Positions 7,284 to 62,203 of a stretch of DNA of 64,000 nt are shown in pieces. Both the position numbers and the translations under genes were made by a program. Below the pieces are notes generated by a model. The model searched no databases and was not told the origin of the DNA. It saw only the letters and a list, made by a program, of their open reading frames with translations. The stretch lies in IMG/VR virus record IMGVR_UViG_3300037313_001079; one strand, given 5' to 3'. Each line of letters starts with the position of its first letter. The first letter of the stretch is position 1. The stretch comes from an uncultured virus (IMG/VR IMGVR_UViG_3300037313_001079) (lineage: Duplodnaviria; Heunggongvirae; Uroviricota; Caudoviricetes).

Positions 7284-7429
7284 ACACCGCCGTCACCATC
7301 ACCCTGATCATCACCGCGTTCCTCCTCGCCGTCGTCATCGTCACCTCCATCCGCGACACCGCCCAGGCCAAGCACAACCCCACCCGCTGCCCGAACTGCG
7401 GCCACACCAGCAAGGAGAACCACGAATGA
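7280..7429 (+). CDS. Small membrane protein with CPNC
   Basis: GTGA coupling; MNTAVTITLIITAFLLAVVIV. Confidence 0.6.
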   Translation: MNTAVTITLIITAFLLAVVIVTSIRDTAQAKHNPTRCPNCGHTSKENHE

Positions 7430-8376
7430 AGATCGGCATCACCGGCGGCGCAGGCTTCATCGGCGGCCACGTAGCCGACGAGATCGCACGCCGCGGCCAC
7501 GAACCCGTCATCTTCGACCACCTCGGCCGCACCGCCCGCAGCAACATCCCCGAGGCCTACCGGCCTGTCCTCATGGGCGACGTCCGCGACCCCGTCGCCA
7601 TGTGCGAGCTCGCCGCCCACGTCGACGGCATCATCCACCTCGCCGCCTGCCTCGGCACCCAAGAGACCATCAAGAACCCGCGGCCGGCCGCCGAGACCAA
7701 CGTCCAGGGCGGCCTCAACTTCCTCGAAGCGATCGCCCAGTACGACATCCCCGGCGTGTACATCGGGGTCGGAAACCACTGGATGAACAACACCTACTCG
7801 ATCAGCAAGACCACGGTCGAGCGGTTCGTCTCCATGTTCAACAAGGAACGCAGCACCCGCTGCAACGTTGTCCGGCTCGTCAACGCCTACGGCCCGCACC
7901 AGTCGGTGGCCCCGCCTTACGGGGCAGCGAAGGTCCGCAAGATCACGCCGTCGTTCGTGTGCCGGGCGCTCACCGGTGCGCCGATCGAGGTGTACGGCGA
8001 CGGGCAGCAGGTCTCCGACATGGTCCACGTCACCGACGGCGCGAAGGCCCTCGTCTCCGCGCTGGAGAAGGCCGCCGACGGTGTCGTGCTGGAGAAGGCC
8101 GTCGAGGTCGGGCCGGCTGACCACCGCACCGTGAACGAGGTCGCCGAGCTCGTCATCAAGGCCGCGGTCGATCTCGGCTTCGACGAGGTGCCGCTGACGC
8201 ATCTGCCGATGCGGCCGGGTGAGATCCCGGGCGCGCAGGTGACGGCGGACGTGGGCACGCTGCCGCTGGTGGGGATGAGCGCGGAGGAGTTGGTGCCGTT
8301 GGAGGCTGGGATCGCGGACGTGGTGGCTTGGTACGCGGAGAACTGGCTGCCGCGCTACCGGGCCAACGGGCAGTAG
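7426..8376 (+). CDS. NAD-dependent nucleotide-sugar epimerase/dehydratase (extended SDR)
   Basis: MKIGITGGAGFIG Rossmann motif, IIHLAA, YSISK (YxxxK), NAYGP, VYGDGQQVSDMVHVTD. Confidence 0.93.
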   Translation: MKIGITGGAGFIGGHVADEIARRGHEPVIFDHLGRTARSNIPEAYRPVLMGDVRDPVAMCELAAHVDGIIHLAACLGTQETIKNPRPAAETNVQGGLNFLEAIAQYDIPGVYIGVGNHWMNNTYSISKTTVERFVSMFNKERSTRCNVVRLVNAYGPHQSVAPPYGAAKVRKITPSFVCRALTGAPIEVYGDGQQVSDMVHVTDGAKALVSALEKAADGVVLEKAVEVGPADHRTVNEVAELVIKAAVDLGFDEVPLTHLPMRPGEIPGAQVTADVGTLPLVGMSAEELVPLEAGIADVVAWYAENWLPRYRANGQ

Positions 8377-8594: not shown

Positions 8595-8939
8595 GTGGCC
8601 CGCTTGCAGATCCTGGAACTCCCCCAGGGAGACGGCGACGACCGGCCGCCGTTCATCCTCGTCATCGACCAAGCCCCACCCACCGCGGAAGCGTTCGACG
8701 CCCTGCGCCGCGACCTCCTCAGCGATGGGGACCTTGCGCCCCGCCTCGGCGCCCGCGCCGTGCTGTGCTTCGAGGAGACCATCGAAATCCCAGCCAACGA
8801 GGTGCCGGTCGACCCGGAGGGCTATCCGGTGCGCATCCGTGTCGAAGGCGACTTCGAGCAGTTCCGGGAGCAGGTGCAGGAGGAGATCAGGCAGGCGCAG
8901 CGTGCTGCCCGGATGGCGGGGCAATGGGGGCCGCGGTGA
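8595..8939 (+). CDS. Hypothetical phage protein
   Basis: GTG start MARLQILELP...PFILVIDQ; coupled to glycosyltransferase. Confidence 0.65.
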   Translation: MARLQILELPQGDGDDRPPFILVIDQAPPTAEAFDALRRDLLSDGDLAPRLGARAVLCFEETIEIPANEVPVDPEGYPVRIRVEGDFEQFREQVQEEIRQAQRAARMAGQWGPR

Positions 8940-9928
8940 AGGTGCACTTCTGGGCCGCTGACATGGCAGGCAGCGCCTGCTACCGCGCTGTGCTCCCCGC
9001 CATGGGCCTGTCCTGGCTCGGTCACACCGCCACCGTCGGTGTCCGTCTCCCGCCGAACTGGGCCTCTTACGACACGATCGTCGGCTGCCGTGTCGCGCAG
9101 GTCGACCCGTCCCGGATGTGGCTGCGCCTGAAGGATGAGGGGAAGCGGCTCATCCTCGACCTGGACGACGACTACTTCCACATCGACCCGTCCAACATCC
9201 ACGCCGCGAAGGTGTGGGATATGGAGATGCTCGGCCGGCTCGCCCACAACATGGGCATCGCCGACCTCGTCACCTGCTGCAGCGAGCCCCTCGCCGCCGT
9301 CCTCCGCGACTACGCGCCCCGCGTGGAGGTCATCCCGAACGGGTTGCCCGCCCAGTACCTCGGCCACCCCCGCGACTACCAGGCCGACGGCCGGCCGCTG
9401 TACGTCGGCTGGGCCGGCACGAGCAGCACGGTGGCCGAGCTGCCGGAGGCCGTGCGCGCCCTGAACCGGATCGCGCAGTACCGACGGCCGGGCGGGGTGA
9501 TGGTGCGGCTCGTAGGCATCAGTGCCGAGCAGGCCATGGGGCTCGGGCTGCGTGGCCGGCAGATCGGTGCGCTCGGCTGGGTGGAGCGGATCGAGCACTA
9601 CCTGCATGCGGTCGAGGAGTTCGACGTGTGGTGTGCGCCGTACCGTGACACGGCGTTCAACCGGGCGAAGTTCCCGACGAAGTTCTTGGAGTCTTCCGTT
9701 CTCGGTATTCCGTTGATCGCTTCTGACATCGAGCCTTATCGGCGCGTCATTAAGCACGGATGGAATGGATTTCTCGTCAAATACGAACACGAGTGGGGTA
9801 AGCTGATCAAAAGGCTTGTCGACGATCCGCAGTTGCGTCAAGAGATCGGCATGAATGCCAGGTCTGACGCCTCCATGAGGATCATGCAGGCCGTCAACCA
9901 TCAGTGGGAAAGGGCGCTCACCCCATGA
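8936..9928 (+). CDS. Glycosyltransferase, GT-B fold (GT4-like)
   Basis: GTG at 8936; ILDLDDDYF, VIPNG, VGWAG, FNRAKFPTKFLE...GIPLIASDIEPY...NGFLV signature. Confidence 0.88.
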   Translation: MKVHFWAADMAGSACYRAVLPAMGLSWLGHTATVGVRLPPNWASYDTIVGCRVAQVDPSRMWLRLKDEGKRLILDLDDDYFHIDPSNIHAAKVWDMEMLGRLAHNMGIADLVTCCSEPLAAVLRDYAPRVEVIPNGLPAQYLGHPRDYQADGRPLYVGWAGTSSTVAELPEAVRALNRIAQYRRPGGVMVRLVGISAEQAMGLGLRGRQIGALGWVERIEHYLHAVEEFDVWCAPYRDTAFNRAKFPTKFLESSVLGIPLIASDIEPYRRVIKHGWNGFLVKYEHEWGKLIKRLVDDPQLRQEIGMNARSDASMRIMQAVNHQWERALTP

Positions 9929-10464
9929 CCTGCATAGCCGAAGACTGCGGCGCGGCCACTGTTGCGCGCGGGCTCTGCAACCGCCACTACCTCGCAGCGC
10001 GCGCGGCCGGCGAGTTGCAGCAGTACGGCACCCGGAAGTCCTCACCTGAGGAGCGGTTGCGTGCCAAGGTCGCGGCTGGGGGCCCAGACGATTGCTGGCC
10101 CTTCGGCGGCACGACGGACCGGCGAGGGTATGGCGTTATCTATTTCGAGGGTAAGAATCGTGGCGCTCACCGTCTCGCCTTCTATTTCGCCAACGGCCAC
10201 TGGCCTGAGCCGGAATGTCTGCACTCCTGTGACAACCCGCCGTGCTGCAATCCGGCGCACCTCTCCGAAGGAACGCGTGTGGAGAACATGCAACAGGCGG
10301 CTGAGCGTGGGCGGTACGCCACGCAGAAGCGGACTCACTGCCCGCATGGGCATGAGTACACCGCTGAGAACACCTACTACAGCCCGGACCGCCCTACTCA
10401 TCGCCTTTGCCGGACGTGCCGTCGCGAGGCCCGCCAGCGGTACTACTCGGAGAGGCGGGCATGA
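9925..10464 (+). CDS. HNH homing endonuclease
   Basis: ARGLCNRHY, CWPF, AHRLAF, LHSCDNPPCCNPAHL...ENM, THCPHGHEY. Confidence 0.9.
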   Translation: MTCIAEDCGAATVARGLCNRHYLAARAAGELQQYGTRKSSPEERLRAKVAAGGPDDCWPFGGTTDRRGYGVIYFEGKNRGAHRLAFYFANGHWPEPECLHSCDNPPCCNPAHLSEGTRVENMQQAAERGRYATQKRTHCPHGHEYTAENTYYSPDRPTHRLCRTCRREARQRYYSERRA

Positions 10465-10544
10465 TGGCGTCGGGCAGCATCATGCAGGCGTTGCATCATC
10501 GGTGGGAGGCGGCCGTCCGCGTACCGCAGGAGGTGAGCGCGTGA
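10461..10544 (+). pseudogene. Orphaned alternative C-terminus of the upstream glycosyltransferase
   Basis: MMASGSIMQALHHRWEAAVRVPQEVSA* aligns with GT end ASMRIMQAVNHQWERALTP*. Confidence 0.75.
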
Positions 10545-10918
10545 TGGAGCTGCACGAGTTCCTGGCCGCGCGGTACGCCGAAGCCCGCGCCCGCGAGGAG
10601 AGCAAGTGGACGGTGCGCGACTGCCCCTACGACTGGGAGTACCGACGAGACCGCGACGACGAGTACGTCCTGGTCGATCGCGTCCGAATCGAGGTGAAGG
10701 CGTTCGTCGAGCAGTACGGCGTGTCAGCGGCCGATCCGGCCGTGCTCGCCGACCTCGACGCGAAGGAGAACGTCCTGAAGGAACATAAGGCGGCCGACAC
10801 GCGCGCGGCCTGGCCGGACTTCGAGGGCGGCGTCTTCAGCGGGCTGGATACGGCGCTGCAACACCTCGCGGTGCCGTTCGCCAGCCACCCCGACTACCGC
10901 GAGGAGTGGAAGCCGTGA
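10544..10918 (+). CDS. DUF6221-like phage protein
   Basis: MELHEFLAAR...DPAVLADLDAK...ASHPDYREEWKP; paralog at 44346. Confidence 0.75.
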   Translation: MELHEFLAARYAEARAREESKWTVRDCPYDWEYRRDRDDEYVLVDRVRIEVKAFVEQYGVSAADPAVLADLDAKENVLKEHKAADTRAAWPDFEGGVFSGLDTALQHLAVPFASHPDYREEWKP

Positions 10919-11241: not shown

Positions 11242-11423
11242 CCGGCCCGGACCACTACCGCGAAGGCGAGCACCTCCTCCACCGCTGCCTGGAGTGGGGC
11301 CACGGCGAGCAACGTCAAGCCCTGGCCGTCGAGGCCATCGCTCACTTCCTCGCCGCACTCGTCGCCACCACCGCCACCCACCAGCACCCCGAATCCATCC
11401 GATGGCAGGAGACCACCGAATGA
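11238..11423 (+). CDS. Hypothetical phage protein
   Basis: ATGA coupling; MTGPDHYREGEHLL. Confidence 0.6.
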   Translation: MTGPDHYREGEHLLHRCLEWGHGEQRQALAVEAIAHFLAALVATTATHQHPESIRWQETTE

Positions 11424-12286
11424 TCAACGGCAAAAGAGTGATCGCCTGGACACCCTACGGACGTGCCCGGACGTACAGCATCCTCTTCCAGTACCTACGA
11501 CGGGACTTCGAGGAAGGCCTCCTCGACGAGGTCTGGCTCTACATGAACACCGACCCCGTCGGCCAGGAAGACGACATCGCCTACGCCCACCAGCTCGCCG
11601 ACAAGCACCTGACCTGGGTCAAGCTCAAGCACCGGCCCGAAGGCGTCCACCTCGGTCACCTGCCCAAGCAGCGCTACACCGGGCTCGCCTACCGGGAGAT
11701 GACCGACCCGGACACGATCTATCTCAGGTTCGATGACGATGTGGTGTACGTCCACGAGGCCGCCGTAGAGAACCTCGTCCGGGCGCGGATCGAGATGCCC
11801 GCACCCACGGCCGTGTTCCCGATCATCATCAACAACGCGCTGTGCTCGCACTTCCTGCAACTCTGCGGGAAGATCCCCACCGAGTGGGGCACAGTCGGCC
11901 CGTACTGCATGGACCCCACCGGCTGGGCCAACGGGCCGTTCGCGGTGAAGCTGCACGAGATGCTCCTCGACCACATCCAGGCCGACACAGTCGAAGACCT
12001 GTACCTGTACCAGGACTTCCCGCTCGCACCGGGCACCCAGTTCTCCGTGAGCTGCTTCGCCAGCCTCGGCAGCATGTACGCCGGCCTGCCCGACCCCGGC
12101 GTCCTCGTCCCCGACGAGGAAGAGTCCTGGCACACGATCCACCGGCCGCTCGCCACTGGCGCGCCGAACATTCTGCGCGGTGACAGCCTGGTGGCGCACT
12201 GGTCGTTCTTCCCCCAGCATCCGTTCCTCAACAACACCGACCTCCTGGACCGTTACCGGGAGATCGCAGACAAGGCGGTGGCGTGA
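11420..12286 (+). CDS. Putative glycosyltransferase, GT-A fold
   Basis: N-terminal VIAWTPYGR, IYLRFDDDVVY (DxD-like), C-terminal VAHWSF. Confidence 0.65.
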   Translation: MINGKRVIAWTPYGRARTYSILFQYLRRDFEEGLLDEVWLYMNTDPVGQEDDIAYAHQLADKHLTWVKLKHRPEGVHLGHLPKQRYTGLAYREMTDPDTIYLRFDDDVVYVHEAAVENLVRARIEMPAPTAVFPIIINNALCSHFLQLCGKIPTEWGTVGPYCMDPTGWANGPFAVKLHEMLLDHIQADTVEDLYLYQDFPLAPGTQFSVSCFASLGSMYAGLPDPGVLVPDEEESWHTIHRPLATGAPNILRGDSLVAHWSFFPQHPFLNNTDLLDRYREIADKAVA

Positions 12287-60459: not shown

Positions 60460-61500
60460 TCAGATGCCCCCCTTGAAGCGCTTGTCGATGTCGAGTCGTT
60501 CGGTCGGGTTCGGTGCGACGCACGCCTCGTAGGCGTCGGGCCAGCGCTCGGCGAGCTGCTCCAGGTCGACCTTCGGAGCCGCGTTGCTGGGCTCCAGCGA
60601 GTAGGCGCGTTCGCCGCCGATGAGGGCGGATTGGGCGTCGCCGAGGGCGGCGATCATCCGGGCCTTCGCGGCGGCCTTCGCCTTCCGCGCGGCGGACTCC
60701 TCGCGCTGGTGCCGGTTGTAGTCGAGGAGCGCGTCCAGGGCGTCACCGTGGCGGTCGATGTCCACCGCGCCGGATCGGGTGGGGTGCAGGCGGCGGAACA
60801 GCTTGGCCAGCGCCTCGCCGTCCCCGGTCGGCTCCGGCGGCACCTGAGCCTGGACGTGGTCGTGCCAGAACTTATCGACGGCGGTGGTGATGTCGTCGAT
60901 CACGTCGCGGTACTCGTCCGCGCGGATGGTGCCCTGGTGGTAGTCGTTGCCGCCGATGAGAACGGCGTAGTGCATGTGCTCGTAGCCGTTGACGATGATC
61001 TGCCACAGCACTTGGGCGGTGACGTCGTCGGGGGCTCCGGCGTGCCACTGCGCGCTCTTGAACACGGACCGGGTTTTGATCTCCAGTGCGCAGGGGGCCT
61101 GTTCGCTGGAATCGAGGGGGCATTCGGTGACGCGCCGGTCGAGGGTGGTCATCCAGTGCGCGTGGTGCTCGTGGGCGACGAGGCCGACGCGGCGGATCAC
61201 GCTGCGGTTCTGCATGGCCCAGCGTCGGGCGACGTTCTCCTCGTTGACGGTGCCCCAGTACGCGGCTTCGCCTGCGTCGTCGACGTCGCGGCCGAGCTTG
61301 TCGTAGTAGACCTTCAGCGGCGGGTTCTGCTCGATCAGGCCGAGGATGGCGGGGACGTCGCTGGAGCCGATGCCGGAGCGGCGGGCGGTGAGCCAGTCGG
61401 CGCGGTCGGCGTCGGCGGGGAGGATGAGGCGGCCGGTGGGGGTGACCCGGCGGCCGGCGGCCGGGGCCGCGGTGGCCCCAGCCTGCGCAGCAGTCGTCAT
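60460..61500 (-). CDS. YqaJ-like viral recombinase exonuclease
   Basis: WLTARRSGIGSSD, TLDR, LEIKT, QVLWQ. Confidence 0.9.
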   Translation of the reverse strand: MTTAAQAGATAAPAAGRRVTPTGRLILPADADRADWLTARRSGIGSSDVPAILGLIEQNPPLKVYYDKLGRDVDDAGEAAYWGTVNEENVARRWAMQNRSVIRRVGLVAHEHHAHWMTTLDRRVTECPLDSSEQAPCALEIKTRSVFKSAQWHAGAPDDVTAQVLWQIIVNGYEHMHYAVLIGGNDYHQGTIRADEYRDVIDDITTAVDKFWHDHVQAQVPPEPTGDGEALAKLFRRLHPTRSGAVDIDRHGDALDALLDYNRHQREESAARKAKAAAKARMIAALGDAQSALIGGERAYSLEPSNAAPKVDLEQLAERWPDAYEACVAPNPTERLDIDKRFKGGI

Positions 61501-61907
61501 CGGTTGCGCACCTTCCTGTTCGTCGAGGCGTTGTGGCAGGCGCGGCAGCGGCGATTGCCGTTCGGACGGATCACCGTGTTGACTTCGTCGTAGGGGTGGC
61601 CTTGCGGGCAGTGGGTCTTGGCCGCGTTCTTCGCGCCGAAGCCCTCGCCGCGGAGGATGTTCTCGGCGTTGGTCACCGGCTCCAGGTGCTCGGGGTTGAC
61701 GCAGTGCCGGACACGGCAGGTGTGGTCAAGGACGAGACCGGCGGGGATGGGGCCTACCAGCAGCTCGTAGGCGAGGCGGTGGACCGCGTGGTGTCGGCCG
61801 CCCACCTTGATCTCTGCGTATCCCTTGCCGTTTCGGGACCGCGTCCAGAGCCAACAGCTGCCTGACCGATCGGTGCGCTGCATGATTCGTTCGAGGACGG
61901 TGGCCAT
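61497..61907 (-). CDS. HNH endonuclease
   Basis: CWLWT, HRLAYE, LDHTCRVRHCVNPEHLEPVT..EN, THCPQGH. Confidence 0.9.
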   Translation of the reverse strand: MATVLERIMQRTDRSGSCWLWTRSRNGKGYAEIKVGGRHHAVHRLAYELLVGPIPAGLVLDHTCRVRHCVNPEHLEPVTNAENILRGEGFGAKNAAKTHCPQGHPYDEVNTVIRPNGNRRCRACHNASTNRKVRNR

Positions 61908-62203
61908 CAGTCCGCCACCTCCGTCATGCAGTGGCGCTCCCACGGCTTCACGAACGTGTCGAGCGAGGCGTCCGGCGTGGTCATCCCGAACCGCTTGCCG
62001 CACTGGCAGGAGCCGATGAGTTCGCAGTCGCCGTACTCGACGATCAGGGCGTGGCCGCCGGCGAGGGTTTCACGGAAGTCGGGGTCGCCCAGTCCGGTGG
62101 GGGTCTGGGGCTCCTTGTCGGCGGCCTCCAGCAGACTGGTGGCCTCGCGGCTCTTGTATCCGTCGCGCTGGAGAGCGTTGAGGATGTCGGTGCGGGCGGT
62201 CAC
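61907..62203 (-). CDS. Hypothetical protein
   Basis: MTARTDILNAL...CQCG...H; coupled. Confidence 0.6.
   Translation of the reverse strand: MTARTDILNALQRDGYKSREATSLLEAADKEPQTPTGLGDPDFRETLAGGHALIVEYGDCELIGSCQCGKRFGMTTPDASLDTFVKPWERHCMTEVAD

Follow-up and report, generated by a model that had tools for sequence, protein, structure and literature searches.

An HNH endonuclease gene between the recoded and the stranded 3′ end of a phage glycosyltransferase gene: a probable intron-less homing cassette

In the 64,000-nucleotide stretch of DNA analysed here (IMG/VR record IMGVR_UViG_3300037313_001079, an uncultured Caudoviricetes virus; the whole stretch is called the window below), a gene for a free-standing HNH endonuclease lies between two versions of the 3′ end of one glycosyltransferase (GT) gene. 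The GT continues in frame into a diverged C-terminal tract that adjoins the HNH gene, and a short piece of DNA behind the HNH gene matches the ends of GT genes that have no HNH neighbor. We propose that an intron-less homing cassette explains this locus and, from sequence comparison, put the probability of this explanation at roughly three in four. An earlier description based on the letters of the window alone (the original prediction) had delineated the GT, the HNH gene, a mini-open reading frame (mini-ORF), the next gene and their overlaps, and all of its coordinates hold. Its view of a cassette lodged inside the GT with no intron is supported by the comparative data and by the coding nature of the interval.

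A glycosyltransferase gene with two 3′ ends

The features of the locus are as follows (GC3, G+C fraction at third codon positions; RBS, ribosome-binding site; L002, L012, L013 and L021 are close GT alleles with no HNH gene, and L041 is a second carrier).

8936..9928, plus strand: GT1/GT4-type glycosyltransferase, hybrid gene; 330 aa, GTG start; Pfam PF00534 (GT1), E=5.5e-11, and PF13692; phrog_7162
8936..9682, plus strand: native 5′ part of the GT, codons 1-249; GC3 0.93; nearest L012/L002/L013
9683..9868, plus strand: diverged, AT-shifted GT tract, codons 250-311; common to L041; GC3 0.63; native copy gone
9740..9790, plus strand: putative recognition site; codons 271-280 are the most conserved DNA among HNH-less alleles
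9869..9928, plus strand: replacement C-terminal 19 codons and stop of the GT; 61-63% identical in DNA to the stranded copy and the L002/L021 ends
9925..10464, plus strand: free-standing HNH endonuclease gene, 179 aa; PF13392, E=2.6e-9; phrog_826
10461..10544, plus strand: stranded ancestral GT 3′ end, 27-aa mini-ORF; codons 312 to the end begin at 10467 (26 codons, 10467-10544); GC3 0.86
10529..10546, plus strand: GGAGG resembling an RBS, and overlapping stop and start codons (TGATG) leading into the next gene; same arrangement at HNH-less GT ends
10544..10918, plus strand: DUF6221 gene; its start overlaps the mini-ORF stop (TGATG)

The HNH start overlaps the GT stop in the ATGA at 9925-9928, as originally described, and the ATG of the mini-ORF overlaps the HNH stop, with a purine-rich RBS-like motif at 10449-10455. 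In run X5, which is not flagged as a potential source of the window, one contig covers 8700-10495 and another 10469-10914, with 0 differences in both; the former bridges the GT, the HNH gene and 31 bases of the stranded piece, and the arrangement is therefore not an assembly join. IMG/VR record L001/G001 is identical to the window over 8990 bases and may have the same source.

We analysed 35 distinct GT alleles; trees and counts exclude 7 alleles below 50% identity as well as 3 exact duplicates, and 22 distant GT loci (L051-L072, 22-27% identity) were left out. An HNH gene lies directly behind the GT in 2 of the 35, and a low-GC3 tract occurs in exactly the same two: GC3 in codons 250-311 is 0.63 in the window and 0.66 in L041, as against 0.79-0.98 in all 33 HNH-less alleles. 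That HNH-less relatives should have GC-rich 3′ ends of the stranded type had been predicted; GC-rich ends are present in all 33, and the relatives do end in sequence of the stranded type. AT-rich HNH-less ends with no likeness to the downstream fragment were looked for among these alleles and none was found. Over 57 nt the stranded piece is 93% identical to the end of L021, 91% to L015, 89% to L012 and 86% to L002; the present GT end of the window is 60-61% identical to these four and 49-79% identical across the HNH-less set. A DNA profile of HNH-less GT ends matches the stranded piece with E=7e-16, which identifies it as the normal 3′ end of the GT family and, with the GGAGG and TGATG, bears out the earlier claim that the downstream fragment is the old GT end still providing the RBS and coupling of the next gene. 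The gene 3′ of the GT differs widely among relatives; in several HNH-less ones (e.g. L012, L013, L019) it is DUF6221-like. The GT ends of these relatives run straight into the DUF6221-like gene just as the stranded piece does, and so the old end was displaced intact, along with its coupling. Only codons 312 to the end are duplicated, and native codons ∼250-311 are absent from the window. When 401 sampled genomes of the genus Streptomyces were searched, 4 matched the GT at E<=1e-60 (the genome of L002 among them), with the HNH gene in none.

The best GC3 change point in the GT falls at codon 253, nt 9692 (218/236 vs 46/72 codons other than Met and Trp; Fisher p=2.8e-8), and 0 of 500 shuffles match the drop. 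The abrupt AT-rich switch of the original prediction falls for the most part in codons 253-311 (GC3 0.61); the last 19 codons, the sole duplicated ones, have a GC3 of 0.84 in the window (0.58 in L041). Since the diverged tract spans ∼80 codons and the duplicated part only the last 19, ∼60 native codons were replaced, not stranded. DNA identity between the window and L012/L002/L013 is 85-87% in codons 1-240 and 62-64% in codons 253-330. In trees the end tract is nested within the GT family, on a long branch (0.4) closest to L025/L021, and the tree of close GT alleles offers no foreign donor for the inserted C-terminus. A short C-terminus of lower GC3, like that of the cassette, is also seen in the GT of L023, where the next gene is methyltransferase-like (by eye) and there is no HNH.

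Five residues are private to both carriers, and all lie in codons 273-315. The most conserved 10-codon DNA window in HNH-less alleles is codons 271-280 (mean identity 0.90). Because the carriers hold private changes in this most conserved window, K273 and W276, the latter a Trp replacing a Glu invariant in 33/33 other alleles, it is the best candidate for the target. A further conserved block occupies codons 241-249.

A self-splicing intron would likewise leave an HNH gene flanked by a duplicated end, and so would an HNH gene that inserted later between two copies of the gene end made by local tandem duplication, but either seems to us scarcely credible. The interval 9869-10466 is wholly coding and Rfam returned no intron family (1 chance match below the gathering score), and a simple duplication leaves unexplained both the divergence of the unduplicated codons 250-311 and the tree conflict described next.

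A second carrier, the HNH enzyme and the genomic setting

Provirus G004 (L007/L041), the second carrier, shares the diverged tract of the window and has a 79%-identical HNH in the same overlap; the 5′ part of its GT is 75% identical to that of the window in protein. A tree of GT codons 1-245 rejects a clade of window and L041 (approximately unbiased test, p-AU 9.3e-8), and a tree of codons 250-311 joins them with support of 100/100. With codon positions 1+2 alone, which lessens attraction by GC3, the 5′ clade is again rejected (p-AU 1.7e-12) and the 3′ tract joined (support 100). Since the tract unites the carriers and their 5′ parts do not, tract and HNH have travelled together from one GT allele to another; this second carrier on another GT background, with the tree conflict, shows that the cassette has moved, in keeping with the earlier idea of a homing cassette. 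A scan of metagenome contigs for the HNH yielded 22 loci of at most 61% identity and revealed no other close carrier. At L099:1-976 a distant GT1 gene is followed by a 40%-identical HNH with no stranded end, and this locus was not counted as a carrier. An eroded relic of the GT end behind the L041 HNH was considered and rejected, as nhmmer gave it no support.

Uncorrected synonymous (pS) and nonsynonymous (pN) divergence between the carriers is 0.63 and 0.041 in the tract and 0.66 and 0.124 in the HNH gene. Synonymous distance is thus alike in the two segments and points to tract and HNH being an old unit, and the pN/pS of the tract indicates that the hybrid GT end is under strong purifying selection, in line with the earlier suggestion that the GT is kept functional. 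The age and rarity (2/35) of the cassette would also suit an extinct element, one that once homed, has lost its target or activity and is kept through translational coupling in the operon. We consider this highly unlikely, as the HNH gene has evolved under constraint with frame and core residues intact and the stranded end shows no decay.

The HNH protein has a His-Cys-box-like core between Cys/His-rich ends (Pfam HNH_3, PF13392; phrog_826), and H100, C102, C107, H112 and N121 are invariant in 15/15 aligned relatives. In I-PpoI the matching His, Cys and Asn residues act as general base, as ligands of zinc and as metal ligand. The HNH family profile aligns weakly (E 0.008-0.017, ∼47 residues) to the H-x-C-x4-C-x4-H-x8-N core that it shares with I-PpoI (PDB 1a73, 1evw), an enzyme that is intron-encoded and eukaryotic whereas the window HNH is free-standing and from a phage. 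A phmmer search of the single HNH against PDB returned just one unrelated weak match, and an AlphaFold model from a 2-row alignment was unusable (mean predicted local distance difference test score, 49). The gene is optional at its cognate locus (2 of 35 close alleles), its core residues are intact, and the GT keeps its own stop. A second HNH gene of the window (61497-62003, minus strand; 31-32% identical) overlaps a 346-aa gene at its start; neither this HNH nor the two other HNHs of G004 were found to have a duplicated end.

The window is 69% GC and has terminase-, portal-, capsid- and tape-measure-like ORFs (judged by eye from the ORF list); the nearest relatives of its GT are in Streptomyces genomes and IMG/VR viral contigs, which makes a siphovirus of Streptomyces the most likely source. 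The locus sits in a plus-strand accessory operon that houses a nucleotide-sugar epimerase (7426-8376) and the GT (8936-9928). The epimerase and a conserved ∼290-aa protein (11423-12286; no Pfam/PHROG match) accompany the GT in relatives, and the three are probably a glycosylation module. In the light of the actinophage literature, the GT may act in virion or DNA glycosylation.

Related HNH genes in other phages

Duplicated ends were sought at 21 annotated same-strand loci, the top and a spread drawn from 1404 and 808 HNH records, with a test restricted to annotated frames. An earlier six-frame screen (56 loci) had been overwhelmed by shadow frames of low complexity: its flag at L125 was true and that at L009 false, and it failed to pick up the window or L098. 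The layout is, on these comparisons, recurrent but confined to a minority of loci.

Mycobacteriophage TootsiePop (MH020243.1, L144:820-1549) has the arrangement of the window in an unrelated gene. Its methylase gp71 ends in 24 recoded AT-rich codons (GC3 0.29 vs 0.80 upstream) and is followed by the HNH gp72, annotated as hypothetical, and then by the unannotated old methylase end, coupled to gp73. The stranded end is identical to the Xavia methylase end at 67/72 nt, the present end at 44/72; Misha28 is identical to TootsiePop at this locus. In Gordonia phage Malisha (OP434458.1, L125:1375-2120) the layout is mirrored at the start of lysin B: the annotated HNH gp29 includes the old start as an in-frame fusion, and lysin B gp30 begins with a recoded copy. 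Against Birdsong and Apricot, the old start is identical at 58/72 nt and the present start at 45/72. At L098:2860-3254, in an uncultured phage, an SbcC-like gene is followed by a decayed HNH remnant and an apparent stranded end.

In Mycobacterium phage Megiddo (L151:578-1370), a candidate, the C-terminal His/Cys motif of gp60 is repeated in a small unannotated ORF after the HNH gp61. Mycobacterium phage Jeffabunny (L138:1-1742) has an endonuclease gene between two genes that both carry the annotation ribonucleotide reductase; they may be halves of a split gene, as with Aeh1 mobE/nrdA. The duplicated end scored at L139 (46) proved to be a shadow-frame match, and three opposite-strand HNH loci (L131, L148, L149) gave no convincing duplicated end.

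Homing, its alternatives and its implications

A homing endonuclease cleaves the empty allele, and in the repair that follows the DNA from the cut to the insertion site is co-converted (PMC2988022). By this model the HNH would nick or cut GT alleles that have no HNH gene when phages co-infect a cell or superinfect a prophage carrier. The site would probably be the conserved block around codons 269-284, which lies 130-180 bp ahead of the HNH start. Repair would copy the donor from conserved codons ∼241-249, the left crossover zone, through the HNH, and the stretch between cut and HNH would be co-converted, so that the tract travels with the HNH; it would drift toward the lower GC of the HNH and be insensitive to the enzyme. 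The stranded end would be the right-hand homology arm, renewed at each homing event, and would also preserve the RBS and the stop/start overlap of the next gene. Because the gene after the GT varies so widely, the GT 3′ end is the only right-hand sequence common to recipients, and renewal of the arm, as proposed, would be why the stranded piece looks fresh though the cassette is old. Target alleles appear to co-occur with the carrier: a contig ending like the HNH-less L021 was found in runs X1 and X5, which also contain the carrier.

Several observations weigh against homing. Only two carriers are known, and profile and nhmmer searches detected no stranded end in L041, so a role as homology arm is not universal. 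Most related HNH genes have no duplicated end: among the 21 annotated loci, TootsiePop and Malisha are the 2 clear cases and Megiddo the 1 candidate, and of 52 non-annotated HNH loci screened, 1, L098, shows one. The residue three past Asn121 is Gln/Gly here and Asp in many relatives. The phages are also mosaic, with the stranded end best matching L021 and the 5′ part L012, and with mosaicism this high a commonplace exchange of modules could account for tract and HNH having moved together.

That last point leads to the main rival, in which no homing took place and the 3′ end of a lower-GC GT allele entered together with the HNH by homology on the left and microhomology on the right (codon ∼310). 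The HNH would be a passenger or have another target, and the stranded end would be a neutral leftover kept for translational coupling. Such a swap sits well with the mosaic genomes, with L041, which is without a stranded end as a donor would be, and with L023, whose similarly short C-terminus precedes an unrelated gene. The right junction resembles ancestral codons 309-312, with an out-of-frame TGA in 9-10 alleles; two indels would be needed, and the likeness is no more than suggestive. We nevertheless regard the swap as unlikely: none of the 35 GT alleles has a low-GC3 5′ part such as the donor should have, low GC3 is limited to the stretch adjoining the HNH, the private changes strike the most conserved DNA window, and three further genes, unrelated to one another, show the same architecture around HNH genes of this kin.

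Biology already knows this layout from the mobile endonuclease ORF (mORF) gene hybrids of fungal mitochondria. In the portions of PMC3630166 consulted, these hybrids (Allomyces macrogynus atp6; Glomus sp. atp6, atp9, cox2, nad3) have, as here, an endonuclease ORF and an inserted in-frame C-terminus, in their case a foreign one, within the target gene, no intron, and a native C-terminus downstream that is nearer to relatives than the inserted copy is. The window shows both the diverged in-frame C-terminus and the native one behind the endonuclease ORF; L041 is without the latter. Unlike the hybrids, the window is from a phage, not an organelle, with an HNH enzyme in place of the fungal families (GIY-YIG for atp9, in the same portions); its target is an accessory glycosyltransferase, its diverged tract of 80 codons far exceeds the 19 duplicated, and its stranded end bears the RBS and coupling of the next gene. 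Partial C-terminal duplications beside endonuclease ORFs also appear in the part of PMC6279837 consulted.

For phages the precedent is partial. Intron-less homing is established (PMC2988022, PMC12724721, PMC10448857, each seen in part). The sections consulted describe T4 SegF, SegG, MobA and MobE (PMC2988022) and lactococcal Skunavirus HNHs (PMC12724721) as promoter-less genes that overlap the upstream stop, like the window HNH, with their target expected in a neighbor gene and co-conversion bringing a resistant donor allele; these endonucleases sit between genes, and the same sections describe no duplicated or stranded gene end, with no word in ‘duplicat’ anywhere in the two main texts. A partial precedent is the mycobacteriophage Omega HNH gp51 beside lysin A (PMC3706429), which on its arrival left the upstream gene with a new 3′ end, as here; the 35-bp target loss is ascribed to a repair error or distant donor, and the passages seen describe no stranded end or recoded copy. 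Our search of the phage literature found no account of the recoded-plus-stranded layout; supplements and subscription papers lay outside it, and a published account may exist.

Beyond this locus, we hold evenly balanced the proposition that phrog_826-like HNH genes commonly spread as intron-less ‘end-replacement’ cassettes at either end of any gene, accessory genes included. The stranded end would then be no debris; as coupling element and renewable homology arm it would make the cassette portable in mosaic genomes, a natural home-and-rescue drive. The homing model is open to direct test in cultured phage pairs (TootsiePop vs Xavia/Yoshi; Malisha vs Birdsong/Apricot), and the signature of recoded end, HNH and stranded end points to the probable target of orphan HNH genes.

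The locus shows how a selfish nuclease can enter a phage coding gene without splicing, and it offers a mechanism for intragenic mosaicism in actinophages; if the wider proposition is true, end-replacement cassettes would regularly give rise to such mosaicism and to tiny mis-annotated ORFs. Gene-end phylogenies and annotations, including HNH starts and tiny ORFs, are affected. Selection on the hybrid end implies, moreover, that this accessory glycosyltransferase matters to the phage.
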